DNA from: Phoronis australis
Taxonomy: Eukaryota; Animalia; Phoronida
Length of the DNA: 64,000 nt
Direction: 5' to 3'
NCBI GenBank assembly: GCA_002633005.1
Contig: NMRA01000979.1
Location: forward strand, 1-64,000
Positions within the stretch are counted from its first letter, which is position 1. Each line of letters starts with the position of its first letter. The notes under the pieces were generated by a model, which saw nothing but the letters and a program-made list of their open reading frames with translations, did not search any database and was not told where the DNA came from. Below are positions 2,159-64,000 of this stretch, piece by piece. The position numbers and the translations under genes were made by a program.

Positions 2159-2233
2159 TTACCGGAAGTTCGCATAAGTTTCAAAGGACTCCAAAAACCG
2201 CTGGGCCATCAAATATAGAGACTTGTACTGTTC
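2159..2233 (-). CDS. RPTP terminal exon (D2 end, YANF tail, stop)
   Basis: ttttccag acceptor; [24 protein letters not shown]. Confidence 0.9.
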   Translation of the reverse strand, partial: EQYKSLYLMAQRFLESFETYANFR

Positions 2234-14200: not shown

Positions 14201-17200
14201 ATATCTTTGAACACATGTTGATATGTAGTTCTTTGTTAGCCGAATCTAGGACGGGACGGTTTCGACATTAGATGATCGACTTACGATCAGCGTACGAGAA
14301 CAGATAATCGCGAAGTTGGATAGCTTAATGGAATATCACGCTCGTTATCATAATTTACTTCAAAACCAAGGGCTTTACTTTACATAAATACAACTATTCA
14401 TGGATCTGCAGCGCGTTTTCACCAGCTATTTTAGATTTTTCTTCTTTGACGATGACAAATGTTTTCTGATCGGAGATCTAGGAATATTTAATGTGTGTTA
14501 CGTACTCATGAACTTATGACCGCTTCAAGTTGTTTTCGCAATGAATATTGAACAGTCGCTACATCGTGTGCCTGTACAAGAGCGTGTGTTGTCCCGAGCT
14601 CACCAGAGGACTACGAGAAAACTGCAATGCACCAAAGCACGTGCAGTGTTCAGTAGCTATTGTGAATATCCTTAACCGTAAAAGTGGCATCTCACGGACT
14701 AACAAACCAATAGCACATAAGCCCAATGCCTCGTTGTTCTCTCAGCATACAAGCAAACAAGGATTTTAGTGACCGGATATACACCCGAGGTACAGGTGTT
14801 AAATATCACCAGTTATTAAGAAAGACATTTTATAAACCAAAAGGATAAAGACAAATTTACTTCTTAATAATCTTAAATTCCATCTTTAAGCAAAAAGTAA
14901 ATTTTCGGTGGTTGTGTAATCGCTGACTTGTACCAAATATTGTATGAAAAACTGTATTCCATGTGATATGGACGCACTTGTAATGCCACCGAGAAAAATG
15001 AACAAAGAGTTGCGTAGTTCTGCCTTTTGAACTGACGTTTAATGCATTGTTAAAACAACAAACACCATTTGTGACCTAGTTTCACAATAAGATTGTTTGA
15101 AGGTAAAAACATCACTCTTGATATGTATTAAAAATGTACCTGAAATTCTTTTTGAAGAATATATTTCTCTTCTTTGAACAGCACGGAAAGAGTTTTCTCA
15201 AAATCTTTTGATGGTATGAACGTGTCACCGCAGTGAATGTTTTCAACCATGGCAGAATGGATGAATTGATATTGAGCCTGTAAAAGAAAAACATGAGGTG
15301 GCAGCGTATTTTAATCTAGATGCTAATTCTGGAAAACTGAAGTGGTAGAATGGGTGCAGTCAAAAGTGGTTCATCAAAGTGAACAGTTTCTTTGGCAGTC
15401 ATGTGAACTGTCCTTGTCATTTGCTTCTCACTTGCTTGTATTAGTATAAAGGCAAACGACACGTACAAGTATATCGAAGTTGCCCTGACCGTAAGAGTAA
15501 CTAACATTTCATACCAAGTAAGATTGTTATCATCTTCGCTAATCCAACTGAAGGTATTACAAAAGCAATACATCTAGAGTGGCACCATTCTATTTCGACA
15601 GGAATCGATTTGTCCACGAATAATTAAAAAAAAATGTTTGACATGGTATTTACAAAGTGATATTACTTTCGGCTTTGCGAACGGAGAATTCGAATCCAAT
15701 TGTATAAGCACAACGGAAGTTATTTATAATATAACACACTTACGGCAGTCTGCACCATGTTAACTCTCTGTTGTCGCAGCAAGTGCACTTGTCCCAGAAT
15801 GTCCACGACATTCTCATTTCTCACTTGTTCACTTAATATATCCATCATGATGAATGTGCCAGTCCTGCCTACGCCAGCACTTAAAGTTAACACGATTTAA
15901 TGATTATAGGACAATAAGGATGGAAAGGGAACATGAGTTATCTCTTTTCGTTCAGCTTGTGATGTGCGTTAATTACACAACGGGACAGAGTGGTAGGAGT
16001 CTAAGACCTCAAATTTGTCACAGTCTCTGATTTTGCCTCGTTTTCCAACATTTTTCTGTTTTCTGTCAGGCGTCAAATGCATAATACCAAGTCATTATTT
16101 CAAGACATGCACATTAGAGTACGACATCTGAAATTACTTCAAAACAAGCAACCAGGTGGACGTTGTAGACCAAAGAATTAATATTCAACAGACCTTGGAG
16201 TAATGAATCAAGTCAACAAACCTGCAGTGGATGATCGTCGGGTTGTTATCTCCATCACGTGCAATACGTCCCTTGACGACACGGTAGAATTGCCAGAGAG
16301 CTGACGAGCTATTTGGAACATCATGATCCGGCCACGACGTGAAGTGGTAGTGAACCAGTTCTCTTGATTGGTGTTGTTTTGGCTGTTGGAAACACGGGAA
16401 AACAGTCCAAATTTCTTTATTGCGTTTCACATTTTTATTAGTAAGTAGAAAACCTGCCTTTCTGTATTTGATTGACGCATCTGGTCATGGTGAACCTGTG
16501 ACGTAACCAGGTGACAAGCGTGACGGTCACTTCATCACGAACCAAAGGCGATTATTCACAACGAAGTACATGTACCGTATGCGATCGCATTGTATGGGAT
16601 GTTTTGACATCTATTTAAATAAACAGCGAAAATTTTGTTTTCTAAGAATTTTCACATTAAGGTACTTGAATACAACATCAGTATTCATTAAATGTCAATC
16701 GATCACATTTACTGGTTCATATAGATACATAAGTGTTTTTACGATTCAAGGCGTTTCCCTTTCGCAAATAAAGATTCTTCTGAGATTATGTACTTGTTAT
16801 TGGTTGTATAATCAAAATGACACTTAATCGTATTTGGTGGCTTTACCGAAAATTGCTTCCACTACAGTACCCTTACCGCTGTAAAAGTAGTACATCCCGG
16901 AAAGATAAAATCATTGTTTACCTAAAAATATCACTGTGTGACAAAATGTCTCGGTGGTTTGTGCAACCCCTTCTTACATTCGTCCACGGACTCGCCCGAT
17001 GCGTTAAACACAGTAGTTGCCGATAAAGCATATTTTGTAAGAAGTTGTCGAACCCTGATGAAGCTTTTAGGGAATAGCAAGAGCCTACAAATCATTGTTC
17101 TGTTTTGAAGACTTTACTTAACATTTAATATCGGTTAACATTTAAAATCCGGGTTAAGTTACATGTAAGTGCCAGTCTGTATATACGTGTGGGTGCGTGG

Positions 17201-17260
<60 letters not shown>

Positions 17261-20200
17261 NAATGAATATGAAAAGTGATCGCCAAGTGTTTTGTCGTTT
17301 CTTTTTCATTTACGTTGAACTCTGTGCATTTACTAACAGAAAACCAAATGACAAACCATAACAAAGTGACCAACACATGTGACCTGCTGTCGTAATGCGT
17401 CCAGTCACGAGAATGCAGCCTGACCTCTCACCAGATGTTTTGTACTTTCCGATATCAATTGTCGAAAATTGAACTCTTCAATTTACAGATATTGCAAACA
17501 TGAAATAAAAGAAATCATTTACACACTAACTTTTACACACACAGTATCTCTCTCATCAATTCATCTGTATCCATATTGATTCCATTTCTCATAATGGAAT
17601 TTTTTGTAAGATGAATTCGCTCAAAGGAGATCGCCGTTCCTTAGGCACGACCCAGCTGCATATGAGGTAACTAACCCCAGAAATAGCAAAACTCATGTGT
17701 TCGAACGAAACCAGGTTCCCGGGTCTTTCATGCTTGTATTTGAAACGAACACGAAATTATTTTGGCAATTTCTCTGCTCCATTTGTGCGAACTCAAGATA
17801 AGTAGTAATCAGACTGTGTTCAAATGCATTATACTGTAGTTTATGCATTTGGGTTTCTAGTTCAAGTTTGCACTTGAAAACCCTTATATTCGTGCTACAA
17901 AGTCAAGTAGAAACAAAAAAATTGGAGTTCCAACTGGAACTTTTAGCCTTAATGTTGGGTGTATCAACCGCAAATTAGGACTAATGAATTATTCACGTAA
18001 GTCATTATGTACTCAACCATAGAATAATAGACACTTACTTTGAATTCCCAAAAAGAAGAGTAGAAAATGCCACAGTTTATTTAATATAATTTTGAGAACC
18101 AATTCGAGTAAAACGTTTAGAGACCGAGCCCAAAGAAATGCAAGAAAACGTGTACTCACAGTGGTTACCTTGAGTACTTCAAAAGTTCTTGTAATGTAAT
18201 CGGGTTTCGTCTCCTTGCTAGTGAGCGTGACGTTGATGTGGCCGTATCTTTCCACCTCATGCGAGTCTGGCCAGTACTCTTCGCATTTTCGCTATAAAAA
18301 TGGTAGAAGGCAAGTACGTACATTTATATATTTATTTATTCATGTATGCATGCATGTGTGTGCGCGCACCTGTGTGTGTGCATGTTTGTGTATTTGTTTT
18401 AAAACGCATAATTCTATTGGACATCTGATTCTCCAATAGGTGGAGCCTGAAGTTGCATCACTGAGACATGCAGTGCTCACCTTCCCGTTTTCGACAGGTT
18501 TGGTCAACATAACTATCCTGGTTACGTTTTCTTGCCACACCATTCGCCAAAAGTCTTTTACAGAGTGAGTATTCGGGCCTAGAAAAAAGACCAACTTAGC
18601 TCAAACCTCTTTCCAATTCAAAGTAACAGAAACTGAATTTTTAGATTAAAGAGAATAAAGTGGTACTGTTTTGAAAATCTGGGGAGAAAATTTGGAACAC
18701 TTCTGCATAGAACATGTTCACGTCTTTTAGAGTAAGGCAGTAAAGGGTTTACCCGTGTGCTGTTGCTTAACATATTCAGGCCTCACCCATTGCAGCAATG
18801 AAGGCCCGGGGTTTCTTGTAGCCATTGATGTAGCTCGCATTGATGAAGTCCGAGTCGGGTTTATTCGTTAGATCAGGAAGAACAACACGGTTCTTGTCAT
18901 CTGTGAATTCCAAAAATCAAGTTATGTTTGCCGTGTACAGAAATGCTTAAGCTGCTCTTGTAATAAAATTTCACAAAAGGCGAGCATCCAAAACCGTATC
19001 GTTTTAATAAAATCTACCACAACATCATATATATCACATAACCTGTTAGGTTTCTGGATGATAATCAGGCATTTATATACAGAATGCATTTCATTGACCT
19101 GTTGGATTATTTGCATCATATGAAAACGATTTTAATCAATATGACAAATGGAACCGACGGCATAGCTTGCAACAAAATAAAAAAACAAAAACAATAACAA
19201 AAAAGAGAATTACCTACTGACTCGTAGGCTTCAGGATTACATACCAGTAACTTTACTATAGCCTTTAAATAGCATTTTAATGTTTATTTCAATGAACTCA
19301 TAAATGGCCGATTATGCGCCTTGCAGTTGGACACAACTCTAGTTACTTGGTGTAGAGAGACTGTGTGCTATTTCCACCTACAGGGTACAATGTTGTTGAA
19401 ACGATTTTTCCTCTTGTTGTCTTCCTTCAAAGCTGCATCTCTCGCGAAAATCAGACCACTAGGTAAATTCTAAAAGGATAACAAATGCGACACCTTTAAA
19501 TTACAGTAAATAGGAAAAATCAGATATCAGTGAATCTACTTTGGGCAAACTCACCTCAGAGTTAGTCAAAGTTACGACATGGAGGTCAGATGCAAAATTG
19601 CGCCAAATCAATGCAAACAACAAGTCATAGTTTTCTGTTGTTTACTGCTAGAACAAGTTTATCGGTGATAATATTTACTTCTTGCGTATAAAACGTGATT
19701 AATGGAAACTATAAGTCATACCCTGTATTCCTCATCGAGATTGTCTTCGCTCTGTCTTCTGGCTACATACGAATCTAATTCATCGATAGGTATTGGTTTA
19801 CTGACGTTGGAGTACACCGGCTCAGCGGGTGGGGGTGCAGTGCCCTTTGGTTTAGTTTGGGGTACTGACTTCTCCTTGGGTCTGGAAGGCTCACCTTGGG
19901 AAGTGTCCCGCAGATCTTTGAACGCGTCTAGTTGGAGGGACAAAACGAACATTTGTACCTGGGTTTTATATATCCCACTTCAACTTTGTAGGAGTTACGT
20001 CTTGTTAACCCTACCGTAGTTTTAAACATCATATAGGACCAAAGCCAACAAATCGCCACACTACACTTTCAATATACCTATGTAAATCGTAAACTGGCAT
20101 GGAAATGCAGGTGTAACTCGTTTTAAGACTTGTCACCCCGTTACCTATTGGCCACACCACGTGACCGGTGGTCCCGATGGCTCAATGGACTAGAGGGTGT

Positions 20201-23200
20201 ACACGGTTAGCAGATGGCAACGGGTTCAAGTCCCGGTTGAGGCAGAAATCTTTTCAGACTTATTTTCATTAGGTCACGTGATGTGGCTAACAGGTGGCAT
20301 GCTGACCAGACTAAAAATGTTTGCTATTACCTTTTAATTTCCCATTAGGGGTACTTCGTTTACTGAAGCTTCGCCGAAGCTTTGCTTATTTACCTTTCCA
20401 AGTTAATAGCGATATCGAAGTTATCAATGACAACAGATGGCGTAGATCATTCGTATTCTCAGAGGAATATCGAGTGGTAGGTTCGAGGCTGACTGAAAAT
20501 TATTCTTCTGCCATTTACAAGTGTTCTTGACAAAGATCAGTGTCATTTTTCATCAAATATGATTATTTCTTTTTTTATTATTCTACGTCTATTGAGAATA
20601 CGTCAGCTACGCTACAATAACAAGGAAAACGTTTTTCGAGTCTCTCGTGTTCTTACATCGTTGCCACGACCTCTACCGATAACCTGAACGAAGCTTCGCT
20701 TTTAAATCCTATTACTTTAAGCGAAGTTTTACTTACAGATTAACTCACGGAGTTAACCTTTCCCATTTACCCAAACTTTGGTAAACGTGAACTTTGGCCT
20801 CTAATTGGAAAGCTACTTACAGTGTAAGTGAACTAAGTTTTAGTCATGCGGAGACTACTTGATCCCTTGCTCACAAGCCAAGAGCGGAATTTCTATTATG
20901 TGATATGTCACGCAGCGATTTGGTAGTGATCACAACAACGATGATATTAATGCTATTTAGGACCTTTATGAACGACCTCAACTCTAAGTCAAACATCGAA
21001 AATACTATGCCTTTTCAACCATTAAAAGAATATATGTTCGGAAAGGAGAAACATGGTTTTGAGACATAACGTAAAGTTTTCATTTAAAAATGTTTAATTA
21101 AAGTCGGTTGGGGTTATTTTGTTAGGATTGTACATTTCTTGTACAACTTAAATGTGGTTACGTGACAATAATAAAGACACAACAGTAAGAAGCATGTATA
21201 CTTTTAATGATTGGCAAAGATAGTTTTTCGATCTTTGACTTAGAGTTGAGATCGTGTATATAACCTTATGCAAAATATGATTTTAAGCATCCACTTACGG
21301 GAACTAGATCCTTCATTTGTAGATATATCATGCATCGGCAGTTGATCTGATGATGAAGGGTTCTTGGACGCTTGTCGTCGTCTCCTACAGGTTGATGGTA
21401 CTGAATTGTAAACAACACAGAACACACTCATGCACGCAAGCACCCACGCACGAACGCACGCACACAGCATCTTCTAACGAGGTTTATTCATAACGTTTAA
21501 TACATGATGCGTCATTAGCTTTTTCCATCAACATTTGCAATACATGTATATTCAGTACTTTTAGAATGTCCACATAATCTATCCAATCACGTGTGAACAC
21601 ATGACAGGGTACCATTGCAGCTTCAGGTTCGTATGATCAGATTTTCCAATATATCAAAATTATTCTATTCACACATCAAAATATATGTTGTTGAACAATT
21701 TCCAGGATTTTTGAAGATAATGTCTGCCCAGAGAAGCAAGTTAAGTTTGGTGCCAGTAATAATTGCTATCTGCAGTTACTGTCATCGTCACCATGACCAT
21801 TATTATTATTATTATAATCATCACCATTACTATTTCTAATAGCACTATAGACGAATACACTAAAATATTCTTCCACTTATGTTATTGCTCACCTATAAAA
21901 CACCAAGCCTATGATGACCAACACCAAAAGTACTGCAACAAATGAACCTATGCCAGCTCCTATCACGGTGTCTTTGCGCTCCTTTTTCCAGTTCCTTACT
22001 GAAAACACGTTTTGTAAAACTTAGTGATAGGAAGCCGTGAAAGTAACAGTAAATGTCAGTGACAATAAGAACAACTGAAGACATTTATTAACTACAGATA
22101 AAATTCCAATAGACAATAAAAAAGAGACAGTAGCAGCAGCGGCGGCTATGGCAGAAGAAGGCAGAACCAGACTTGCGTACCCAGCATTCTTTCAAGTCAT
22201 GTGCGAGTACCAGCGAAACATTCAGCTGCACTACAGGTTGAAGAATTTAGAGTCCCCTGATACGACGTAAAATGTAACAATTTCGTAAAATGTAACAACT
22301 GTTGAATTTTAGGAGAGGTTTAGCAACGTAAAATGTAACAATGATGTAATAAAAAAATGTTACATTTTACGGCGTATCAGTGCCCCATTAAATGTTCTTT
22401 AAATGATGTCAGTCGGGAGCATTAGAGAATACATCACTACCTTGGTGAGTTTCTGCTTCAGCCATGTCTTCAAACTGTAGGTACTGGTAATGCTCTTTCC
22501 TTTCCTGTCACGATTGAGGAGAATTGTTAGGCTGGATGACTCGATATTCATAACGTGACGAAGACATGAACAGATCAAGAGCGGAAAGCATCTCACCAGT
22601 GTGATAGCATTGTTGGCTTAAAATGGTTGCCATTTAAATAGATTTGTTTCACCAACACTACCATTACGCGCTCTTAATGTTTACACAGGAGGTCCATTCC
22701 TAGTCACTCACTAAGTTAACTCAGCGTACTTGAAGTAACTGCGTTGCAAACGGAGGTACACTAGAATACCTGAAAACTACTTGAAAAACACATCAAAAAC
22801 TACACACTTTCAACAATACGTGGTTCCAACTCTCTTTGAATATAAATAGAAGAGCATAAAAATTCGTTTACTAGTCTGACAATTGACTGTCTAGAACCGC
22901 AAGGTTAAATTTGTAAAAGCGGTATTAAGCGGGTACAAACACGGCTTCTGTTACAAAAAGGAGTTTAGATTGACACAACTTTACGTAATGGAATTGTTCT
23001 CAATTTTTTTCTTATTCATACATACGAGATTGATTTATTGGCTTCAAGAGAACAAATGGCTCAAGGTTTGTTTTTGCTTGATACCAGACTTCACAAAATC
23101 CTTATCAATGTGCGTCATTTTATTCACCAAGCAGGGTCTAGAATGAAAATGAGCAATATGGTGAACATTTAGGGTATGAAGTTAAGGTCCTATTTGAAAA

Positions 23201-44200: not shown

Positions 44201-47200
44201 TTTACAAGGTTAACTTTACATTTTTAAATTTTATTTCCGTTGTTGGTCAGTGTTCGAACATCACCGAATAAGTGTGCTGACACGCCGTGCCAGTTAGTCT
44301 GAAAATTTACTGGCCTGGCTGCCAAATTGCTTTTAAATGTTACTGACCCAGCTGCAAATCCAATGGCCCCGGGCCAGGCCACCGTGTATTTCGAACACTG
44401 GTGTAGGTACAACAGATAATATTCACTGTCAAATCACCTGGGTAACAGGTAAACATTCTAGAAATCAATTATTTTTGAAACAATTGAAATGAGTAACAGG
44501 GTATGCAAAAACAAACTAACCCTAACCCTAAAACTTTAATTCTTTAAATACATTGAACACATCGAAAATGGGAAGGAGTTCGTCCTCTCTCAAGATTATT
44601 TTTCCAAATTTTATTAAAATCCGTTAAAGAACTCCAAAGATACAAAGGCGAACGTTAAAAAAATACCAAATGCCGTCGCCGTCGTTGTCTGTTGTCAACT
44701 TCATATCAATACACTTGCCAAACATAATGAAAATCCTGCATAGAGATGCAGCAACATATGCAAAACACTGTCACAAGAGGTACATCGGTAGTCCGAATGG
44801 TCCGAAAATCATTATCAGTCATTCGCTTCAAAATGCCAGTGGTTTATTTGATATAGCGTCGGAGGCCAACAAACAGACCAGAAGACAGTAAAAATGGCCA
44901 CTATTTGACGCAAAATACGTCGAGCCTACCCGAAAACGGGAAAATGTCATCAATTACCAAATTTAATAAAAATCCGTCAAGAAACTTCAGAGAAACAGAG
45001 GGATACGGAAGAAAATGAAACTGCCACTAACGTGAACAAAGTTCTTAGAATCCGTCTGAAAGTCGTCGTCGTCCGTTTTCAAATTCATAAAAATACACCC
45101 GTAAGTTCAATAAAAATCCTGCAATGAGCTAAGGAGATAAAGCTATGGGCGCAATTACAGAACCACACTGCCACTAGGAGGCACCACAGTAGTCGAAGTC
45201 GTCCAAAATCATCGTCAGCGATCCTCTTCACCTTAGGAACATATATCCCTGTTTTCACAATCATCCCTAGAGTGGTTTGGTTAGTAGAGGGGTGGACGCC
45301 AAACAACAGACTGGGAAACAGTAAAAATGGCTAATAGGTGGTGGAAAATACCCGGAATCCATACGAAAACAGGAGGATAGCGTCATCCATTACAAGATGT
45401 CGATGTTCCGAATTTCATGAAAATCCGTTGAAAACTTTGGAAGATGCAGAGGTAAACGTAAGAAATGTAAATTACAATTAGGAGACGCACAGGTTGTAAG
45501 ATCAGTCCGAAATTCGCCGTCATCATAGAAATACATCTGACAAATCTTATCAAGATCCTGAGGGGCTTAGAAGATTAGCTGCGGACGCCCAGCGGACGAT
45601 AGACACCCACACGCCCGCCAGACAAAGATGAAGGTAATACGCACCCACATATAAATGGGGTAGGTGCATAATAATATAACAAAGGCGACATCTTTGACTG
45701 TGTGTACTGCCTGTCGTCTAAACCTGTATTTTATCAGAAATTTCGACCTTTTGAAATTTGATCGTGGTTTGTTAGCACACTGAAAGCTGGCCCAATGAGT
45801 TCAGGGTCTTGGAAATATCAAATTTCATCCCCGATCTGTCATCAGTTTCACAAGTCAAACATCAGTCACCAGAAGAATTTTGTAGTCGTAAAACTAAAAC
45901 AGTTAATACAACGGCAACCGCTCTACGTACGCATTAAACTTGCAGAAAGGCAACTTTCGATTATTTATTTTCTGCAGTTTACATGCAGGTTCAAATAAAA
46001 ACAAAACTAGATACTTTTAACAGAGAGGACGGCTACACAGTTACGGAGATTTTTTGAAGTTTTTGTCTGGTTTTGCATTCTTTTAGGATTAGGAAAATAA
46101 ATAAAATAGTTACTTGAATGGTATCAAAATCGAGAGTAAAATCTGAAGAAACGTAATTTAAATTATGGAACATTTACGATTGTCAGTTTGAATGAGTTTT
46201 TATGTGCCTGGTACATCTCGTCAACGTTGACGCAAATCCACATTCAATCTACATGTAATACCTGAACACAAGCTCACGTTGCAATGCTTCCACCGAACAG
46301 AAACAAGGTAACACCACGGTCCACCTTCCGTGTCGTCAGGATTCCGACAGAAATTTTCATGGGATTTCGGTTTCTTAGTGCTTTTCCACATTTTACATTT
46401 TTCGCCATTGCTTGCTGTGTTGACTTTGCCCATGTAATCCTTCCCGAGTTCTGTATACTTGCAATCATCTAAATTGACATTGTTTAAAAGCGAGGCATTT
46501 ATCATTGTGCATTCATCTCACGGACGACACTGAACAACAAACATCTTGGCGATCTTTTGAGATACTATTCTGAAGAGTTTAATAAAAATGTCATGTTGAA
46601 AATTAGAATTCATATACAACGTGTCATTATTGATAAAATTGATGTCAGAGACAACCCAACGCAGACAATTCAAAACTGTTTAGCTAAATCAAATAAATCA
46701 ACAATGTAGGACAACGTAACATTCAAAATAGGCTTAAAAAATCACAGTGCCACCTAGCACTAAGTTGAGTTACCATAAATTCACCGAGACAATAAAGAAA
46801 AGTTGACATTTGTTCAGTTAAAAGAGGTGCAAGATGGTGTAAGGTGTTCATGGAAAATATGCTTACATTTTTATTCAACGTTTTCTTGGTTATAGATTAT
46901 GGGTCTGGGTAAAAGAAAACCAAGATTTGCTTATGGTTTGATAACCTTTTAAGCTCAGACAGTTCCGTTATAGCCTTGGACAATCGTACGAATAGAATCG
47001 TATAATCCTAGTCAAATCATAATCGTATCGTAATAACATCGTAATTACAAAATGTGCATCATAGTCATATCGTTATCACATCTTAATTACAACGTAATCA
47101 AGTGCACCTCTTCCCGACAAAGGCGATTTGTAAAAAAATGGCCACGGTTGTTTAAAACTATTTTAGTAAAAGGTTCTGTGGTGATTGGCAAAAGAACAGG

Positions 47201-50200
47201 TCACCTAAGGCAAGTGAAATTAAAGAAATTACACAGCAAGTGCCACTACAAAAACACTCACGAGAGCCGTTTCCACTGGTTATGTGTATCCCGTGAACAA
47301 CGAAGGTTCCATTGAATTCCGCTCTCCACCACGGATTTTGCAGATGACTTCTCTTCAATGTATGTGAACAAGACTTTCCCTTCAAGAAGTCTGTAGAATG
47401 ACTGCCATCAATGGCCTTCCCGGCGTCAGCAGTGAAACTGAACGAGTGAGAAACAAGACTCAGCGTCGACGACTGGTCAGCTTTAGAGAGAGGAATTTTA
47501 CCTACATTTGAACAAAACAGGTATTGTACGCATGCTTTCTGTAAACAAGGTAACTGGTGAATAGATGAAGACAGGCCGGAGAAAGTAATTACAACTTGAT
47601 ACGCATGTTTCCCTAAATTTTAAAAATAAAAGCGATATCTGAGGTTGTTACAGTGATCCAAAATACAGCACCGGCAGCTATCAAACAAAGAAATATTCGG
47701 ATAATTAAGGGGAAATCTAGTATATGCAAAAATAACATATTCCATACGTGCGCACTTCTTGACTCCCACGCCATTTTACCAAATGTACATTTGTCGAAAA
47801 GTTATGTTCGTGAGTTGAGAAACGACGTCAAAAGTAAAGAAAAAACAAATTTCGTCACTTTCAATTCAACTACTTGCTTATGTTTTACTAAAATGAGCAA
47901 GGAAAGGGCAGTAGTCGTCGAGAATTTCAACTAGCGCAAGTGGAAACAGAAAATGGAGTCGTTTTTTTCGGTAAAAGGTCGAGCAATGAAGCAATTCGCA
48001 TGGTACCAACTTGAAGATCGGTAAGTGGACTTCCTGGCATGCAAATCAAAATCTCCCGACCATAGAATCACCCTGACCATCAACTAAAACACTGCACATC
48101 ACTGGTTGCAAAAATGACAACAATTCAAAAATATTGTCCATTACAACACGATTTTTTAATTCTTCCACTGTGGTTGTCGGGCAAAATAATCCACCCTTAA
48201 CGATGTCGCCGAGTATATGCTACTAACAAACGAAAGCCATTGAAACGTTAGCAGAGGAATCCGATTATATTTGCTGTCGGGTACAGTAAGGTATTACCAT
48301 AGTGGGGGCTCACAACCCTAGAATACAAGTTAGTCTTGCTTCCAGTAGCCGTGAAGACGTTTACACCAGTGTGTATATGAAACTCCTTGTAGTCTAGTCT
48401 GCTTGATATTGACTGGACTTCTGACGGTGATAACGTTGAGACACTTGCATCATACACGCTGGCTGATATGAGGTCAGTGGCTAGGTCAACGTTACTTCCG
48501 CCGTAGACGCGGACAGTTCCGGAACCCATTGACGAAAGTGTACTCAGACGGTAGAGTGGCTCTGAAAATTTTTTATGAGATATTTTATCCGTATGTGAGG
48601 CTACTCGCGCTCAGGTCATTAGAACGTGTATCAATTGCGTCATTAAATAATAAAAACAAATTGATAAAATGAAAAGTAAAATTAGTTAAAGATACATGGA
48701 ACGCGAAAAACAGACTCAATTGGAATATTGGAAGTGGTTCCGTGACACTAAAATGGAATTGAACCTGCTCACACGGTGTTTTTAAGGTTAGTTCGTAATG
48801 GTTTTTAATTTCTGTTGATATAAAACCATTTTCTTTTAGTTTCAAATTTCAGAAAAAAAAAACAATTTGTAAACTGCTCGCCCCTTCGCCTATTTTCTTC
48901 TACAAGGCAAAGCAGACATCCTTATTTGTTATGGCAAGACACAGACGTAGCACACTCCCCTAATATGGAAAATGTGATCTTTGACCTCAATGGACTTCAA
49001 GCATTTAACTGTGAGCGCATGCATGTACTTATCATGAGTGGGAGGTAGATTACAAATTCTGTGGTGACCACAGAGCCATTCCTTCGTGCATGGTTCAACC
49101 GTGCGCGCACCCAGGGTGGGGGGGGGGGGGGGNNNNNNNNNNNNNNNNNNNNNNNNNNNNNNNNNNNNNNNNNNNNNNNNNNNNNNNNNNNNNNNNNNNN
49201 NNNNNNNNNNNNNNNNNNNNNNNNNNNNNNNNNNNNNNNNNNNNNNNNNNNNNNNNNNNNNNNNNNNNNNNNNNNNNNNNNNNNNNNNNNNNNNNNNNNN
49301 NNNNNNNNNNNNNNNNNNNNNNNNNNNNNNNNNNNNNNNNNNNNNNNNNNNNNNNNNNNNNNNNNNNNNNNNNNNNNNNNNNNNNNNNNNNNNNNNNNNN
49401 NNNNNNNNNNNNNNNNNNNNNNNNNNNNNNNNNNNNNNNNNNNNNNNNNNNNNNNNNNNNNNNNNNNNNNNNNNNNNNNNNNNNNNNNNNNNNNNNNNNN
49501 NNNNNNNNNNNNNNNNNNNNNNNNNNNNNNNNNNNNNNNNNNNNNNNNNNNNNNNNNNNNNNNNNNNNNNNNNNNNNNNNNNNNNNNNNNNNNNNNNNNN
49601 NNNNNNNNNNNNNNNNNNNNNNNNNNNNNNNNNNNNNNNNNNNNNNNNNNNNNNNNNNNNNNNNNNNNNNNNNNNNNNNNNNNNNNNNNNNNNNNNNNNN
49701 NNNNNNNNNNNNNNNNNNNNNNNNNNNNNNNNNNNNNNNNNNNNNNNNNNNNNNNNNNNNNNNNNNNNNNNNNNNNNNNNNNNNNNNNNNNNNNNNNNNN
49801 NNNNNNNNNNNNNNNNNNNNNNNNNNNNNNNNNNNNNNNNNNNNNNNNNNNNNNNNNNNNNNNNNNNNNNNNNNNNNNNNNNNNNNNNNNNNNNNNNNNN
49901 NNNNNNNNNNNNTTTTTTAAATGATAGTTTTAAGTGTAGAATGTATTTTTGACGAGGTGAAAACTCGAAATCGGTAACACAAATCCGGTCACGACCCGTT
50001 TGAAATACACTGAAGTAACGAAATGAGTACAGAAAGCGAATGGAAGTATTGTAGCCCCTAGATGGCCCCGCGTTGGTTTGAATGCGCTAAATCTCCCCTT
50101 ACTCCCAGCTCTCCTAATGTTGTTTATCCATTTTTCACGAAATTCTTGGCTTGCAGGGAACTCATAAAATTCAGATTTTTATCTCTCTTGTTGTTTTTGA

Positions 50201-53200
50201 AGCAGCCAGGAACACAACAAGTGTATCCGCCGTAAGTTTTCTTCGCGCTCACCGCTTATTATGCTTGTTACTATGGCCGCTTTCGGAATCCTGACCACAG
50301 CACCCACAATGCACCATTTTAACCTAATTTCAATATGGCGTCGCTGCAAATCCGCTATTGTCCGAGCATAATTTTGTTGTTAATATTAGGTAAAAAGTCA
50401 GAAGTCGAAAGCATATGAAATTTAAACCAGAATAACTAAAGTCAAATTGATGGAAGATAATAAATAATGGTCGTTTTTTGAATCAGTTTTCACTTAATTC
50501 ACAGTGAATAAAAATTAATTCGGTCACTTACCAATCTTTCTGGCCGACACGAAACGTTTGCATTTCCATCGGTAATGATACCTGTAAACAATTTGTTGAA
50601 CGAATAATGCTCCATCCGACCGTAACATTTACTGTACGTGATGTATTTATGATAGTTAGTGGCATTTGTTTCGAAATTATCCATTCACGGTTTTTATAAT
50701 GCAGTCATAGAAGTCATGTGATACCGGTCCGTCGGAAAGCATTTAACATTTTTGACGGATGGGCCAAGCTGCTACTGAGTGCTTGAAACGTGATATTGAG
50801 CAACGGGATAGAAAGAAAATTGTGCAATCTTGCAACCTCTCCCCGTCAGCTTTTCTTCTCTCCACAAAAGTTTACACATCCACTTGCCGATCGTAATAAA
50901 GTCGTAACCCTATTGCGACCAACTTCCCGTGCCCAACACCGCGTCAACTTAACCTTTACGATTCAGTTAATTTTCAGAAAACATTTTCCGGTAACGTCAT
51001 TTTAAATAATGACTTCTGGGGGACTATTGGATGCTAAATGTTTTTAAGACTCATAAAGGTTTTTTAGAAAATTATCCGCAACAACAAATAACATATTATG
51101 ATTTATAATGATACTGAACCATATTTTATTGTGTTGACCCCAAATGTTTCTTTCTCCTGATATTGTGTTATTGGTGTATCCCTGGAGGTTGGACGTAATG
51201 TTCAGCCAAAACATTATGTTCACATTTTCATACACGGGTTCGCTTGTTAGAGGCGCACGACCACTCTGATCTTCCCACAGTCTTAAATCAACTCACCAGA
51301 GCCGTTAGTCACGCTTTTAATTTAGATCATTTATAAAAGACAGGTGGAGCTTCAATCAAACGGTTGAAGATTGTCCGGCGAAGGTCAACACAACATTATT
51401 TTTTTCAAAGCTTTTGTGTTGTGTTTCATTATTATCCGTCAAGAGTAAACATCCAAGGGCAGTGTCCTTTTATCTGATCGAAGCAATGCTTTGATTTGAC
51501 ATGTGACTATTAACCTAACTTGAGTTCCACTTTATTATGGAGCATTAATTGAAAGTCAAGTACCAGAAAAAGTAGGCTGTGTCAACTAGTAAAAGTACAT
51601 ATTTTCTAAAAGAAAAAAGATCACGGATTATAAGAAAAACTATACTTACATATCATTTTATTATAACTGGACCTCTTTTTAAGTGAAATTTTTTAAGTGA
51701 AACTTTTAAGGAAAATTCCTTTAAGTAAAAACTTGCCGATAACTCTAAACAACTCTGTTAGGAACTTTCGATGACCCATTTAGTTTAGTTTCTGCGCCAA
51801 ATTAACTCGCAAAAACTAAGGCATTTTGGCAAAAAAACAACAGTCGTAGTCGTCTGTAGCACCGTCGTTTAAAAATTCCTAACAAGGTTTTTGTGTTAAC
51901 ATTGGGAAGATTCAGTGAAGTCGACACTTCATTGTTGTAGGCAACTTTTGAAAGTCGTACCGGGAAGACTGATATTAAGAAACCAAGTACGACATGATCA
52001 ACATCCAGAATTAAAGCGCAGAGAGAGTTAGAGAACGAAAAAGTGAAACGTCAAATTTCCGATGAAATTAATTACTTTGGGTGAGGATTTACCTTTTGTC
52101 ACAACTCGCTGCTTTCGTGAAAAGAAAGTGCCTGATGCCGTGCGGCGGAATAGTATGCACGCAAACCCGTAACTCCATCAGTATCAAAACCATGATTTGT
52201 CGCCATTTTCCGAGGCATCTTTCTATGCTATACACATCTCGTTGAATGAAGAATATGTCAATGAATAAAAGGACTGTGAAGTCTGGAGATTCGATTTGAG
52301 TGTCGGCTCAATAACTTTTGAACTTCGATTAAGTTGCCAACAAATTCCCACGCGGTTCAAGTGGGTCGGGGAAATAGAATTTTTCCTACCATAAACAGAC
52401 AAGATGTGGATTTGCAAGTTAACTAGAAATGAGGATAACAGATTTATCAGGAATTCAATGTGGCAAAAAAAAATTTAAAAAAATAATATTGCATAGTCAT
52501 AGAAATAGTCCCAACGAACGTGTCAACATCGCAAAACAAAGGAGTCGTAATACGTACATGTGGACACATCAGCCGACCTCAAGAAATGCGAAATCATATA
52601 CATGCAACAACACCTTTTCCCAATTTTGTTAACCACCCATAGAGTTCAAGGGGTCGTAATGTTAACGTGTTATTTACCCGTAACTCCGTCCAGCGCCGTA
52701 ACGAAATGATGCGATATACGAAGTTCTAACTGGAGCTGTGCAAGTCGTCCATCTAACTGTTCTGTCAGAGTCGTTATCGCTCCAGGGCAAGATACGTCCG
52801 TCGTGCCACGCCGCACGACAGACTTTGGAGTCCTTTAGAAAAAATCGGATATAAGACATAGGTTTTAGACGTATACCAAAGGCCACTATAACAGAGTACC
52901 ATATAAAATTAATACAATATATGGTAATTTTATCCAAAATATTCAATTACGTTCGAATAACGATACACTGTGTGTGCACTGGGGCAAACGATCACTGGAG
53001 CAATAAGTGCGTGTACAGGTTATACCACATACATAGGAATACTACTGCCATATCCTATCTCCCATTCCTTTCATCTGGGAATGTCCCATCTCGACCGAAT
53101 TATCCCGCATATATGGACTTACAGGGCCGTAGGAAGAGGGGGAGGGGGCGGGGGGGCACGGGCCCCCCAAAAAATTTTCAGGCGTCTGGGTTAAACCGTG

Positions 53201-62200: not shown

Positions 62201-63860
62201 ACAGACAATGTGTATATAAATACAAAATGAACAGATTGTTGTTTAGGCAGATTTTTTTAATTGGCTATAGCAATGTTTGCGAAGGACACATGCATGGAAT
62301 AGAGGATGTTTCTTTAACCCAGGAATGCTTTGTAAAAACGGCAATGAACTAAATGTATACATTTCTTCGAAACTAATGCATTCTAAAGTCATATTTGTAA
62401 GGAGTTGTCTTTTTACAGATTTCGCATTCAATGGGTCAAATCCAAAGTAAAGTCAGTTTATCGATAACAACTTACGTTCGTATAGTAATACGCGCCAAAC
62501 ACAGACGTGGCTCTTGGACACTCACGCTTGGGGCAGACGTAGTCCGTGCTGAAATCGTCAGAACAAAACAAAACGTATAAATTACAACACGATTACAGTG
62601 AAAAGCAGACTGTAGAGAAGCAGTCATACTTTGATTTCAACAGTGTCGAAATTACAGTTTGCTCGGAATTTGTTTTGAGCGTCTTCATTTTGTTCAAGGA
62701 CTACAGTCGGCCGAAACAAAAAACATGCACCCCGACCTAAAATCAAGTTTGTCTTACTTGCACGAAGTCTGGGCCGCTTTTCCCCCATAATGTTTATGAA
62801 TTGTGAATGAAATAAACCGCGTCTACGTTGTAAAGCTACGTGTATTATTAAATTAGCAATTCCAACATGTAGTAGTATATCAGAAAAAACCAAGATGCAC
62901 ATTTAACTACTTTTCGTTAGATATTTCAAAAATAATTACGTTTTAACCAAATGGAATTGTTGAGTTCAATGCAACTGCTCGCACGACTACATCTTGTGAA
63001 CAACACAGACCCAATTTCGTACACCAAGTTTCTAGTGATAAAAGGGAGACCTCGCAAGACCACGTAAAATTACACGAGTGAAAGCTGAGTGAGTAGGCCT
63101 ATGCTCGAGATTTAATTAAATCCAATCTGGCAAACTAAAGGCCATTGAATTGTTCGGTTGGTGCGTAGATGATAGAATTAATAAAGTATGGGATGGAATT
63201 CGCCTTTCCGGGCAATAACCTGAAATTTCTCACCGAAGCTGCTGGTCTGTCTCTGGACTACAGCACGCAGGCCTGGTGCCCAATTGTAGATAACAATACG
63301 CCCAAAAATTGAATCACACAAGTCTTCACAAAATACCCCCATGCATTATATGTGGAGTACGTGATCACACTAGCTATACTGGCGAGATCCCTGCGTCTCA
63401 GAAACTCAATCTTGCAGGACCATAATTAAGCTCCAATTCGAGTCGCACGGCTACATATGCTTACAATAAGTGTTCATTTGAATATTTGCTGACTTTTGTT
63501 GACGGTAGTTCTTGATGTGACAAGTCCAATACTGCATGTTGTATTTTCACTGCGCCGAGAAAAATTTGATGGCCACAAACCTGCTGCATGCACTGTTTCG
63601 TGAAGTAAAAAAACCGAGAGTCATCGCTGCACAGGTGTAATATTCTGGAAGAACGAGAGTTTTCACCGGAATTTGCACCGGAACAGTGATGGTCAAGATC
63701 AATTTTAGATTTGCGATGGGCACACTGTGTTCAAATCTCATCATACAAGTGTTCCTACGAAGCAGAGGCCAATTAACTTACTTATCTTTTTTATTTCTAA
63801 ACTGCGTCTCACATGTTAAGTCCCCATCTGACGTGGCTGGGATCTTTAGTACACCATCTA
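2159..63860 (-). CDS. Receptor-type protein-tyrosine phosphatase, 45 traced exons, 5'-partial: LCCL-(unknown)-FTLD[kringle]-Ig-EGFx3-FN3x~14-TM-PTP D1-PTP D2
   Basis: Hand-spliced exons with GT/AG borders and matching phases give one open frame (8,699 nt) ending [27 protein letters not shown] motifs: [44 protein letters not shown]. Joins above 48561 cross an N-gap and a 9.6 kb intron and are less certain. Confidence 0.9.
3506..3641 (-). CDS. RPTP D2 exon (degenerate P-loop)
   Basis: (HCL)[45 protein letters not shown]; cag/gtaagt. Confidence 0.92.
4102..4171. mobile_element. 70-bp MITE with 5-bp TSD
   Basis: CATGGGTGGCGCACCA...TGGTGCGCCGCCCATG with ATATG on both sides. Confidence 0.8.
4721..4884 (-). 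CDS. RPTP D2 exon
   Basis: [23 protein letters not shown]...KPATIHC; tag/gtgagt. Confidence 0.9.
5059..5190 (-). CDS. RPTP D2 exon
   Basis: [22 protein letters not shown]...[10 protein letters not shown]; tag/gtgagt. Confidence 0.9.
6249..6383 (-). CDS. RPTP D2 exon
   Basis: [38 protein letters not shown]; tag/gtaagg. Confidence 0.93.
6744..6820 (-). CDS. RPTP D2 exon
   Basis: [25 protein letters not shown]; cag/gtaagt. Confidence 0.92.
6834..6963. mobile_element. MITE / fold-back with ~27-bp TIR
   Basis: GGGCAGAGTTCAGTAACGCTAGGACCT...AGGTCCTAGCGTTACTGAACTCTACCC. Confidence 0.8.
8030..8129 (-). CDS. RPTP first D2 exon
   Basis: [33 protein letters not shown]; cag/gtgagt. Confidence 0.9.
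9344..9994 (+). CDS. LRAT/PLAAT (HRASLS)-family permuted NlpC/P60 acyltransferase/phospholipase, single coding exon, nested antisense in the RPTP intron
   Basis: 216-aa ORF with KPGDHL, HHAI, VIHY and [22 protein letters not shown] (His-His-Cys catalytic set). In-frame stop just before the ATG; AATAAA at 9994-9999. Confidence 0.92.
   Translation: MTDFDFVSRLCTNSNSSDLSDACVRMANEQLERITYSDWNKLKPGDHLLFNNGWFIHHAILIEVNIKRRQLKVIHYSRNSSLNSSPSGLSRSCGSTSGGSSLSSSSLSSKSSAPWLSLSGLMWSIGGGMVPGLFMSVNEEWVDVGPEEVMERDVSPAEYPPDEIIKRARQRLGESQYKLFMNNCEHFVQYVKRGVSESTQVNRWLRPYRYFFPKHY
12098..12234. mobile_element. Two adjacent copies of the CATGGG MITE family seen at 4102
   Basis: catgggcggtgtaccatagggg...gctgcccatg, then gcgcaccataggggtctgaggggctatag...ttgcccatg. 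Confidence 0.7.
12617..12756. mobile_element. MITE (CATGCGCGCA termini) inside a small inverted-repeat element (~12568-12774)
   Basis: TIR CATGCGCGCA/TGCGCGCATG; flanks GACGG/GTCGG; outer arms tagacagtgaccacc / ggtagtcactgtcta. Confidence 0.65.
15140..15277 (-). CDS. RPTP D1 end / interdomain linker exon
   Basis: [22 protein letters not shown]...LQKEFQ; cag/gtacat. Confidence 0.92.
15744..15879 (-). CDS. RPTP D1 catalytic exon
   Basis: (HCS)[15 protein letters not shown]...[12 protein letters not shown]; aag/gtaagt. Confidence 0.95.
16222..16382 (-). CDS. RPTP D1 WPD-loop exon
   Basis: [20 protein letters not shown]...PTIIHCS. Confidence 0.95.
17186..17260. repeat. (GT)n microsatellite
   Basis: Direct inspection. 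Confidence 0.95.
18169..18291 (-). CDS. RPTP D1 exon
   Basis: [23 protein letters not shown]...[10 protein letters not shown]; second in-frame donor 9 nt further on. Confidence 0.93.
18481..18578 (-). CDS. RPTP D1 exon
   Basis: [33 protein letters not shown]. Confidence 0.95.
18787..18900 (-). CDS. RPTP D1 exon
   Basis: [38 protein letters not shown]. Confidence 0.95.
19382..19469 (-). CDS. RPTP D1 first exon
   Basis: [29 protein letters not shown]. Confidence 0.92.
19722..19927 (-). CDS. RPTP intracellular juxtamembrane/wedge exon
   Basis: ...[38 protein letters not shown]; phases 1 to 0 fit neighbours. Confidence 0.88.
20170..20243 (+). mobile_element. tRNA-derived (SINE-head / pseudo-tRNA) sequence
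   Basis: A-box-like TGGCTCAATGG and B-box GGTTCAAGTCC at tRNA spacing; acceptor and anticodon stems do not pair cleanly. Confidence 0.6.
21299..21384 (-). CDS. RPTP post-TM exon
   Basis: [29 protein letters not shown] (basic stop-transfer); tag/gtaagt. Confidence 0.85.
21893..21998 (-). CDS. RPTP transmembrane exon
   Basis: [27 protein letters not shown]; cag/gtgagc. Confidence 0.92.
22257..22380. mobile_element. Fold-back element with internal repeats of CGTAAAATGTAACA
   Basis: CTGATACGACGTAAAATGTAACA...TGTTACATTTTACGGCGTATCAG; three direct copies and one inverted. Confidence 0.75.
22441..22504 (-). CDS. RPTP extracellular stalk exon
   Basis: [21 protein letters not shown]; the phase 0-to-1 candidate I found bridging its neighbours. 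Confidence 0.65.
23299..23563 (-). CDS. RPTP membrane-proximal FN3-like exon
   Basis: [18 protein letters not shown]...YITANF...[17 protein letters not shown], typical RPTP juxtamembrane motif. Confidence 0.92.
24009..24117 (-). CDS. RPTP membrane-proximal exon
   Basis: [36 protein letters not shown]; tag/gtgagc. Confidence 0.85.
24970..25126 (-). CDS. FN3 exon (C-half)
   Basis: [23 protein letters not shown]. Confidence 0.9.
26090..26199 (-). CDS. FN3 exon (N-half)
   Basis: [10 protein letters not shown]...[19 protein letters not shown]. Confidence 0.9.
26589..26655 (-). CDS. FN3 exon (final strands)
   Basis: [22 protein letters not shown]; cag/gtaaga. Confidence 0.85.
26947..27197 (-). 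CDS. FN3 exon
   Basis: [10 protein letters not shown]...[20 protein letters not shown]...[10 protein letters not shown]. Confidence 0.92.
28471..28773 (-). CDS. FN3 exon
   Basis: APFAPPRN...[18 protein letters not shown]...[14 protein letters not shown]. Confidence 0.93.
29656..30258 (-). CDS. Double-FN3 exon, tandem copy 4 (603 nt)
   Basis: Phase 1-1; APSTGPQNV...[18 protein letters not shown]...VTTQEK. Confidence 0.93.
30880..31482 (-). CDS. Double-FN3 exon, tandem copy 3 (603 nt)
   Basis: Phase 1-1; APSIEPQNV...VTTQEE. Confidence 0.93.
32104..32706 (-). CDS. Double-FN3 exon, tandem copy 2 (603 nt)
   Basis: Phase 1-1; APSTAPQNI...VTTREE. Confidence 0.93.
33217..33819 (-). CDS. Double-FN3 exon, tandem copy 1 (603 nt, most diverged)
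   Basis: Phase 1-1; APSGVPQSV...VTTKEE. Confidence 0.93.
34247..34552 (-). CDS. FN3 exon
   Basis: APGPVQNL...[16 protein letters not shown]...[13 protein letters not shown]. Confidence 0.93.
34891..35110 (-). CDS. FN3-like exon (C-part)
   Basis: [18 protein letters not shown]...WRVRIRAFN; phase 0 to 1. Confidence 0.85.
35872..35936 (-). CDS. FN3-like exon (N-part)
   Basis: [22 protein letters not shown]; tttcag/gtaaga; phase 1 to 0. Confidence 0.8.
36316..36624 (-). CDS. FN3-like exon following the EGF repeats
   Basis: LKQPPTV...LYIRWTRW...[12 protein letters not shown]...YKVRIRI. Confidence 0.88.
36938..37081 (-). CDS. EGF-like exon 3
   Basis: [45 protein letters not shown]. Confidence 0.92.
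37926..38075 (-). CDS. EGF-like exon 2 (TIE-type)
   Basis: [14 protein letters not shown]...[26 protein letters not shown]; the DPYGCSC motif is shared with TIE1/TIE2 EGF2. Confidence 0.93.
39740..39871 (-). CDS. EGF-like exon 1 (TIE-type)
   Basis: [41 protein letters not shown]. Confidence 0.94.
   Translation of the reverse strand, partial: FAVEVDLVATAQTTVRNVRTEVFVTTSRASVYAPRDFAEISVR
39978..40508. mobile_element. Kolobok-like non-autonomous DNA transposon
   Basis: AGGAGAATG(T/C)CA TIRs; flanks TTGA / TTAA. Confidence 0.6.
40743..40988 (-). CDS. Ig-like exon resembling TIE2 Ig2
   Basis: [13 protein letters not shown]...IQWQKD...HGGVYTIR...ITRLIVR; not in the ORF track; phase 1-1. Confidence 0.88.
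41488..41733 (-). CDS. F-type lectin domain, C-terminal half
   Basis: [10 protein letters not shown]...LC...[14 protein letters not shown]...[10 protein letters not shown]. Confidence 0.92.
42338..45680 (+). repeat. Complex degenerate repeat, Helentron/HINE-like
   Basis: Recurrent ccaaattt(c/a)...aaatcc and gccactagg(a/t)ggc motifs. Subterminal inverted match gcgtaatagtacctt / aaggtaatacgc. 3' GACG-rich tract and gcaccc...ggtgc hairpin. Confidence 0.55.
44248..44400. mobile_element. hAT-like MITE with decayed 8-bp TSD
   Basis: CAGTGTTCGAA...TTCGAACACTG; flanks TTGTTGGT / GTGTAGGT. Confidence 0.7.
46262..46468 (-). CDS. Kringle domain exon (207 nt, phase 1-1)
   Basis: [27 protein letters not shown]...[16 protein letters not shown]...WKHCNVSLC; six Cys. 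Confidence 0.92.
47262..47501 (-). CDS. F-type lectin domain, N-terminal half
   Basis: ADQSST...AGKAIDG...SCSHT...NPWWRAEF...VHGIHITSG; tag/gtgagt. Confidence 0.92.
48298..48561 (-). CDS. Unassigned 88-codon ectodomain exon
   Basis: ttttcag acceptor, open phase 1-1, gtaata donor; [22 protein letters not shown]...VVSPHY; no domain recognised. Confidence 0.7.
49133..49912. other. Assembly gap (N run)
   Basis: Ns following a poly-G tract. Confidence 1.
50532..50581 (-). CDS. LCCL domain exon d
   Basis: tttacag/gtaagt; [16 protein letters not shown]; phase 2 to 1 bridges neighbours. Confidence 0.65.
52678..52832 (-). CDS. LCCL domain exon c
   Basis: [14 protein letters not shown]...[10 protein letters not shown] matches LCCL S-x-I/V-C-x-A-A-x-H-x-G. 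Confidence 0.8.
55137..55617. mobile_element. MITE with 5-bp TSD nested in the P-like element
   Basis: CAGTGGCGGATT...AATCCACCCCTG; GAACC on both sides. Confidence 0.75.
55236..55347. other. Assembly gap (N run)
   Basis: Ns. Confidence 1.
58338..60831 (-). mobile_element. Decayed hAT transposon with 5-bp TSD
   Basis: TIR CAGTGGCGGATCTACG / CGTAGATCTGCCACTG; TTTTC on both sides; transposase relics inside. Confidence 0.85.
59040..60526 (-). pseudogene. hAT transposase pseudogene (PRKRIR/THAP12-ZMYM1-like), internally deleted
   Basis: Ordered fragments [55 protein letters not shown] and ERSF...RLRS, with stops and frameshifts. Confidence 0.8.
61619..61668. repeat. Imperfect (CA)n microsatellite
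   Basis: Direct inspection. Confidence 0.8.
62476..62548 (-). CDS. LCCL domain exon b
   Basis: tttcag/gtaagt; [24 protein letters not shown], in phase with exon c. Confidence 0.75.
63782..63860 (-). CDS. LCCL domain exon a
   Basis: ttttgttttcctatag/gtaagt; [25 protein letters not shown]; phase-1 start implies an upstream exon outside the window. Confidence 0.7.
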
Positions 63861-64000
63861 CTATAGGAAAACAAAACATAACAAGCTACGAATACAATGT
63901 TGCACGACACGTCAAACATTCTTGAATGCAAAACATGTTTGACCAGTAATGATGGGTTGGCAGCTGGAGATGTGAAGAGAAATCTTTCATATTTCGCATT

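Follow-up and report, generated by a model that had tools for sequence, protein, structure and literature searches.

Does the long minus-strand gene in this stretch of a Phoronis australis contig (64,000 nucleotides in all, hereafter the window) encode one receptor phosphatase that carries several recognition modules, and what would such a receptor bind? A preliminary description had placed a receptor-phosphatase gene at 2159..63860, with LCCL, F-type lectin, kringle and TIE-like modules on a long fibronectin type III (FN3) stalk. Translations and splice-site scans confirmed its extent, from an acceptor at 63860 on the minus strand to a stop codon ending at 2159. The G+C content of the window was about 40%, and it contained three longer or single-base groups of N. 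We modelled 44 coding exons, all with AG acceptors, separated by 43 introns, all with GT donors. The preliminary description gave 44 introns and no exon list. It had also claimed one continuous spliced frame. Exons 4-44 (41 exons, GT-AG) did form a single frame, which runs for 2779 residues to the stop codon at 2159, but the LCCL exons did not join it, as their direct splice to exon 4 reached a stop after residue 114. Exon 1 is probably an internal exon. Only 140 bases of the window lie 5' of it; they include an in-frame ATG at 63919, accompanied by a short hydrophobic run, where a signal peptide might start instead.

The domain order in exons 4-7 was 87 residues of unknown family, the N-terminal half of an F-type lectin, a kringle and the C-terminal half of the lectin. 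From exon 8 on it was an Ig domain, three EGF repeats, 14 FN3 domains, a membrane-proximal FN3-like domain, a transmembrane helix, and phosphatase (PTP) domains D1 and D2. The features are as follows.

63813..63860, minus strand: exon 1, the first within the window, where the LCCL region starts; AG acceptor rich in pyrimidines, GT donor in phase 2.
62476..62548, minus strand: exon 2, N-terminal part of LCCL; phase 2 to 0, spliced exons 1-3 match tick LCCL.
52678..52832, minus strand: exon 3, LCCL core; phase 0 to 2, LCCL matches and same-strand RNA depth.
48298..48561, minus strand: exon 4, site of the frame conflict; open end to end solely in phase 1, same-strand RNA depth.
47262..47501, minus strand: exon 5, N-half of the F-type lectin; matches to FBP32, eel agglutinin and Pfam PF22633, RNA joint to exon 6.
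46262..46468, minus strand: exon 6, kringle; symmetric phase 1-1, Pfam Kringle E 1e-13, RNA joint 47262/46468.
41488..41733, minus strand: exon 7, C-half of the F-type lectin; matches to FBP32, eel agglutinin and PF22633, RNA joint 41488/40988.
40743..40988, minus strand: exon 8, cysteine-free Ig (the second Ig of TIE-type heads); matches the tick Ig2 profile, RNA joint 40743/39871.
39871-39740, 38075-37926 and 37081-36938, minus strand: exons 9-11, three TIE-type EGF repeats; Pfam EGF matches.
24970..36624, minus strand: exons 12-24, 14 FN3 domains; Pfam fn3 matches for most exons.
22441..24117, minus strand: exons 25-27, membrane-proximal FN3-like domain of receptor PTPs; weak PTP_tm and Fn3_PTPRU matches.
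21893..21998, minus strand: exon 28, single transmembrane helix, from hydropathy.
15140..21384, minus strand: exons 29-37, PTP D1 preceded by the juxtamembrane segment; Y_phosphatase matches in Pfam for five exons, and motifs.
2159..8129, minus strand: exons 38-44, PTP D2 and C-terminal Y-x-N; WPD-loop Asp replaced, stop ending at 2159.

The kringle, EGF, FN3 and PTP modules of the preliminary description were thus each matched exon by exon in Pfam. The model is loosest next to the membrane. A short phase 0-to-1 exon is required 5' of the membrane exon; out of about 47 candidates, 22504-22441 was taken as the likeliest exon 27. The membrane-proximal exons scored 66 bits against relatives, with the choice of exon 27 nearly tied with others.

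RNA from the same species label was available as three raw-read runs (X1-X3) of one study. A first alignment at 90% likeness was dominated by repeats, and none of the gene's joints were among the rows listed. In a second alignment, of 37801-53000 at 95% likeness with about 18-19% of each run read, seven introns of the gene were expected. Three were recovered: lectin N-half to kringle (47262/46468; 4+2 reads), lectin C-half to Ig (41488/40988; 5+1 reads) and Ig to first EGF (40743/39871; 6+8 reads). All three joints had minus-strand GT-AG ends and first mates on the plus strand only. In the usual stranded library, a first mate on the plus strand marks minus-strand RNA. The other four of the seven expected joints, between exons 3-4, 4-5, 6-7 (46262/41733) and 9-10, were not among the rows listed. 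The junction check proposed in the preliminary description therefore ties the lectin and kringle exons to the receptor through three of seven introns. These exons are transcribed and spliced toward the receptor, and the gene is expressed. The 36 introns outside the RNA stretch and the LCCL link rest on sequence and homology.

The gene's joints were present in X1 and X2 and none were seen in X3, which suggests that expression differs between these samples of the same study. Several intronic repeats (about 58100-60700, 49900-50700, 53400-56000 and 42700-45400) showed deep RNA coverage, mostly on both strands, and a joint at 59171/59511 within one of them recurred in all three runs. Two exon-like open reading frames in this region, 59695-59492 (no Pfam match) and 59286-58921, were rejected for their deep two-strand repeat RNA coverage.

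We then asked whether the LCCL exons belong to the same protein. Exon 3 alone matched Pfam LCCL weakly (E 0.17), and a PDB search with it returned irrelevant repeats alone. Against a local tick LCCL profile it reached E 5e-7 among 3388 six-frame fragments. With a profile built from 15 tick-type receptor heads, the spliced LCCL exons scored 44 bits, and they matched P0123 at E 1e-7 in a 10-protein database. The LCCL module of the preliminary description was borne out by these scores, which place the LCCL of exons 1-3 in the subfamily found in tick receptor PTPs.

Exon 3 ends in phase 2, and exon 4 is open solely in phase 1. An in-frame LCCL therefore needs a 1-base indel or a missing exon. Read in the phase-2 frame, the first 11 or so codons of exon 4 extend the LCCL alignment gap-free to its last conserved strand, although this tail is weak (23/500 shuffles reach its score). 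A 780-base N gap (49133-49912) lies within the intron between exons 3 and 4. The simplest readings are a surplus base near 48530, in the assembly or in an allele, or an exon hidden in the gap. A third option, a weak non-consensus phase-1 donor at 52685, would restore the frame but is not preferred; this variant scored 41.1 bits, against 45.5 for the preferred end of exon 3.

In its open phase-1 reading (87 aa), exon 4 had no Pfam family, no Atlas match and no signal peptide, and its single-sequence fold was uninformative (pLDDT 34). In profile tests it did not match the first Ig domain. It is possibly a decayed second LCCL: 5/1000 shuffles reached its score in one of 12 tests, HHalign gave a probability of 2% with 3/150 shuffles, and the pairwise comparison gave 268/2000.

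An alternative reading is that the LCCL exons lie outside the receptor protein, making a 114-residue LCCL product or marking a null allele, while the receptor begins at a different first exon, not seen here. Splicing by the strongest donor and acceptor does give the early stop in exon 4, and the support for the phase-2 tail is thin, as the shuffles show. Neither an exon 3-4 joint nor an indel in exon 4 was among the RNA rows listed, at a depth in exon 4 of about 1-3 as estimated from bins. In X2 and X3, exon 3 was covered by same-strand RNA; in X1 it was not, although downstream exons were. Against this stand the LCCL subfamily, which is that of the head of tick TIE-type PTPs and lies here on the same strand and in the same order, and the missing signal peptide of exon 4. 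In addition, the intron holds the N gap, and a single base would restore the frame. We consider a separate LCCL product unlikely. The preliminary description had named transcripts that place the LCCL and F-lectin exons in a separate gene as one outcome that would undo its proposal; the F-lectin exons proved to be RNA-joined toward the receptor, and no LCCL joint was among the rows listed. Our preferred reading keeps the LCCL exons in the receptor.

The F-type lectin was recovered in two pieces. Exon 5 matched FBP32 at E 6e-12, residues 27-78 of eel agglutinin and positions 1-38 of 91 in PF22633. Exon 7 matched FBP32 at E 7e-5, eel agglutinin residues 112-151 and PF22633 positions 46-89 of 91. 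These matches to eel agglutinin and bass FBP32 uphold the F-lectin module of the preliminary description. A profile that included the window's own halves found one lectin N-half and one C-half in the window. The preliminary description had listed the kringle beside the lectin; the kringle instead splits it. Aligned with sea-star F-lectin domains, the kringle exon, an insert of 69 residues, falls at the Arg79-Arg86 (R-x-D...R) sugar-binding loop.

In the available text of PMC5712786, the fucose site of F-type lectins is formed by His52, Arg79 and Arg86. The window's lectin keeps the calcium/cation motif h2DGx and the fucose His, but both fucose-binding arginines and the vicinal cysteine pair are absent. 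Of the fucose motif H-X24-R-X-D-X4-R/K the His remains and both Arg are gone, with the kringle lying within the segment. Departures from this motif are taken there to suggest changed or lost sugar binding (PMC5712786). Fucose recognition, as claimed in the preliminary description, is therefore not supported under that definition, since the kringle insert breaks the basic triad. Eel agglutinin (1k12) and bass FBP32 (3cqo) share with the window the F-type fold sequence, the calcium motif and the triad His. They are soluble and have an intact Arg79-Arg86 loop, whereas the loop in the window carries the kringle and lacks both arginines. Because the kringle sits at the sugar-binding loop and both arginines are lost, the head likely binds proteins rather than fucose.

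In a predicted complex the two lectin halves scored 0.47, against 0.02 for the best control, with at least 93% of contacts agreeing between runs and a partner pLDDT of at least 63. The mark used for half-pairing was reached by 51/78 solved and 2/108 mismatched pairs, and passes at or below 0.60 count as weak. The model thus lends weak support to pairing of the halves, and the score may reflect likeness to solved F-lectins.

The kringle has six cysteines and the kringle core, and it matched the kringles of plasminogen and HGF; its middle loop is about 10 residues shorter than that of plasminogen. A lysine-binding kringle site consists of two acidic residues, an Arg and an aromatic trough. Aligned with plasminogen K1 and K4, the window's kringle has counterparts of the first Asp, of both aromatic walls and of the Arg. 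Where the second Asp would be it has Thr, with Asp and Glu beside it, a departure from the plasminogen pattern. The kringle would thus have most, not all, of a plasminogen-type lysine pocket.

A glycan pattern-recognition receptor, in which the F-lectin and LCCL bind fucosylated or microbial sugars and the protein signals in immunity, was the proposal of the preliminary description. The F-lectin fold, the calcium motif and the His are kept, as this reading would have them. Receptor PTPs with a galactose-binding-type domain and EGF repeats occur in a schistosome-resistance locus of a snail, according to the available part of PMC12297450. A 'PTPRF-like' coelomocyte surface marker, which may or may not belong to this family, is reported from Asterias in PMC13409769. 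However, the triad has lost both arginines, the vicinal cysteine pair is missing, and a 69-residue kringle occupies the loop; departures of this kind are read in PMC5712786 as suggesting changed or lost sugar binding. By analogy with these animals an immune role is plausible, but glycan recognition of this kind appears improbable.

The Ig and EGF core resembles the TIE head. Exon 8 scored 32 bits against the tick Ig2 profile (0/1000 shuffles). For EGF exons 9-11 the highest scores (114-125 bits) were to TIE-headed proteins of echinoderms and ticks. Ig2, TIE-type EGFs and FN3 follow one another in the window in that order. No match to the first Ig domain was found among 3388 six-frame fragments, with a control profile of low sensitivity that found 2/15 tick heads, and in the RNA exon 7 splices directly to exon 8 with no Ig1 exon between. 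The TIE-like head of the preliminary description thus stands for Ig2 and the TIE-type EGFs and lacks an Ig1. TIE receptors have a kinase, Ig1 and Ig3. Vertebrate TIE1 and TIE2 share Ig2 and EGF repeats with the window, which has tandem PTP domains where they have the cytoplasmic kinase.

Among the RNA-versus-genome differences listed, all four in exon 8 (40743-40988) change the amino acid, and three of the four elsewhere in the coding exons leave it unchanged. This hints that the Ig exon is evolving fast, as far as the best-supported rows go.

Exons 16-19 (29656-33819) are four tandem 603-nt exons of two FN3 domains each, 73-89% alike in DNA. Among copies 17-19 the likeness is 86-89%; introns 17 and 18 have the same length, 621 nt, and are 78% alike. 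By this tandem exon copying the FN3 stalk was lengthened recently. The ectodomain has 60 N-glycosylation sequons.

Two phosphatase domains follow the membrane. The single transmembrane helix had a 19-residue hydropathy of 2.9, against 1.06 for the next best segment elsewhere. In D1 the WPD aspartate, the Q loop and a canonical CX5R loop are all present, and it is predicted to be an active phosphatase domain; its pTyr-loop tyrosine is Phe, as in the sea-star receptor P0239 described below. D2 is degenerate, with the WPD-loop Asp replaced. An active D1 with a regulatory D2 is the usual RPTP pair, according to the available text of PMC7959691. The tail ends in Y-x-N, as in 34/36 relatives. Tail tyrosines are phosphorylated in R3 receptors (PMC5336234, available part), and the tail tyrosine of PTPRA recruits Grb2 and Src (PMC7959691, available part). 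With one frame, a membrane helix and intact D1 motifs, the gene agrees with the predicted receptor phosphatase of the preliminary description, with several modules on a long FN3 stalk.

At 9344-9994 the plus strand carries an intronless open reading frame, some 216 codons long, that encodes an LRAT domain (Pfam E 3e-17) and has an AATAAA signal at its end. It sits antisense in the 7-kb intron between the D1 and D2 exons and is a nested gene or a retrocopy.

We examined relatives to see which parts of this layout are known. Of 152 proteins first gathered, three, all from echinoderms, combined TIE-type EGFs with tandem PTP, and in one, from a tick, LCCL was accompanied by a TIE head. A search with this tick head covered proteins of 1087-3462 residues that have words in common with it, and gave 134 matches, of which 120 were examined. 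LCCL, TIE head, FN3 and PTP occurred together in 16 of these 120 listed relatives (10 named ticks, 6 unnamed). An F-lectin-type domain was combined with PTP in one (Patiria P0239) and with a kinase in one (P0204), and no kringle was found among the 120. The kringle core motif was likewise absent from all 277 proteins scanned.

The tick receptors (e.g. XP_077499778.1 of Amblyomma americanum, P0160) share with the window the LCCL subfamily, Ig2, TIE-type EGFs running directly into FN3, one membrane helix, tandem PTP and the Y-x-N tail. They keep Ig1 and have no F-lectin or kringle, and the D1 of the window falls outside the tick clade on a long branch. Ticks carry an expanded LCCL-TIE-FN3-PTP family (P0159-P0193), several per genome and under unrelated vertebrate names; receptors of the P0160 type are annotated 'PTPRU/T/K-like'. 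No paper on this tick family was found in the literature searched.

In Patiria miniata XP_038048244.1 (P0239) and XP_038048240.1 (P0204), an F-type lectin lies ahead of a TIE head, as in the window. P0239 continues into FN3 and tandem PTP, and P0204 has a kinase instead. Their lectin is uninterrupted (P0239 keeps the His, Arg-x-Asp and Arg), Ig1 is present, and LCCL and kringle are absent. These two proteins have near-identical signal peptides and F-lectin/TIE heads on a tandem phosphatase and a kinase end, respectively, and from their sequences an opposing receptor pair is possible.

Other likenesses are more distant. Echinoderm XP_063963207.1, XP_033636860.1 and XP_038066639.1 share TIE-type EGFs, a long cysteine-bearing FN3 stalk and tandem PTP about 40% identical to that of the window, and are without LCCL, lectin and kringle. 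Byrum's work of 2006 is said to have described lectin-bearing RPTPs of the sea urchin. The vertebrate RPTP subtypes R2A and R2B have an FN3 stalk and tandem PTP, as does the window, but carry at the tip three Ig domains and a MAM domain plus Ig, respectively (PMC10815196, available text); the exon scan of the window found neither. The SudRes1 receptor PTPs of Biomphalaria sudanica have a galactose-binding-type domain, EGF repeats, one transmembrane helix and tandem PTP; their stalk is of multiple EGFs, and kringle and LCCL go unmentioned in the main text (PMC12297450), the comparison with the window being by description alone.

The best identity of D1 to relatives was 49%. In a D1 tree of 48 rows, the window grouped with 42 others against five outgroup rows (96/95), the outgroup being mostly PTPRQ-named or PTPRQ-like and without R2A, R2B, R4 and R5 sequences. 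The branch of the window was long and fell neither within the echinoderm clade nor within the one that contains the ticks. Ortholog searches in proteins of up to 2000 aa gave 0/65 candidates with exon 7 and two generic matches with exon 16. A wider search with exon 16 gave 3073 matches, and the best 150 of these had 23-33% identity and included no ortholog.

Contrary to the preliminary description, the scaffold is not lineage-specific: ticks have catalogued proteins of the layout LCCL-TIE-FN3-PTP, and Patiria has one of the layout F-lectin-TIE-FN3-PTP. The novelty that it claimed for the combination fared better: no kringle-bearing version was found among the 277 proteins fetched or in the literature searched. 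That literature, which included few subscription papers, held no description of this layout and no report of a kringle combined with an F-type lectin domain or inserted in a fucolectin. What is known is a scaffold of LCCL or F-lectin with TIE, FN3 and PTP, catalogued but apparently unnamed, and what is new is the nested kringle. The exact three-module head is so far known from a single genome. As no ortholog was found, the nested lectin-kringle unit rests on that one genome. Judged by its sequence, the receptor appears either to belong to a still unnamed group of TIE-headed invertebrate receptor PTPs, which swaps its outermost modules, or to have copied the design of that group.

On balance we favour the following reading and consider it fairly probable. 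The locus is one expressed gene for a type I receptor PTP, its F-lectin split by a kringle and stripped of the fucose arginines, whose head would bind proteins and which would signal through the predicted active D1. The two lectin halves would fold into one jellyroll, a pedestal holding the kringle on the former sugar-binding face. The LCCL exons would be part of the same protein, with the frame break due to an assembly or allele indel or to an exon missing because of the N gap. The glycosylated stalk of about 14 FN3 domains would hold the head tens of nanometres out from the cell. There it may bind proteins through the kringle, the LCCL and the TIE-like core, and binding would alter receptor clustering or position and so tune D1. 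D2 would be regulatory, and the tyrosine of the C-terminal Y-x-N may dock SH2 proteins, by analogy with PTPRA.

A broader version of this reading, which we regard as rather doubtful, makes the receptor a member of an old bilaterian family that joins a TIE ectodomain to a phosphatase and uses the F-lectin sugar loop as a phase-1 socket for exchangeable recognition modules. Here the lectin would have become a pedestal for a lysine-binding kringle in the socket, which would sense cut or microbial proteins, the response being dephosphorylation. The remaining alternative treats the head modules as mostly passengers of exon shuffling on a bulky phosphatase that, as do the vertebrate R2/R3 receptors, serves mainly in adhesion or spacing, by means of its long FN3 stalk and its TIE-like core of Ig and EGF domains. 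For it speak the loss of Ig1, the decayed look of exon 4 and the recent growth of the stalk by tandem exon copying; vertebrate RPTPs are described as acting in adhesion and through exclusion by size (PMC10815196, available text). Against it, the kringle retains its six cysteines and most of the aromatic and basic residues of the pocket, and in both lectin halves the frame is open and core residues are preserved, a sign of selection on the head. We consider this alternative very unlikely.

Under the reading of a protein-binding head, a lectin domain has been re-purposed within a signalling receptor, with a whole binding module inserted exactly at the former sugar site. TIE-headed receptor phosphatases are common to ticks, echinoderms and this animal, and are mislabelled in databases as PTPRT/K/U/F-like; the literature searched contained no account of them as a group. 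Since related lectin-fold phosphatases lie in a parasite-resistance locus of a snail, the ligands of this TIE-headed group are worth finding.
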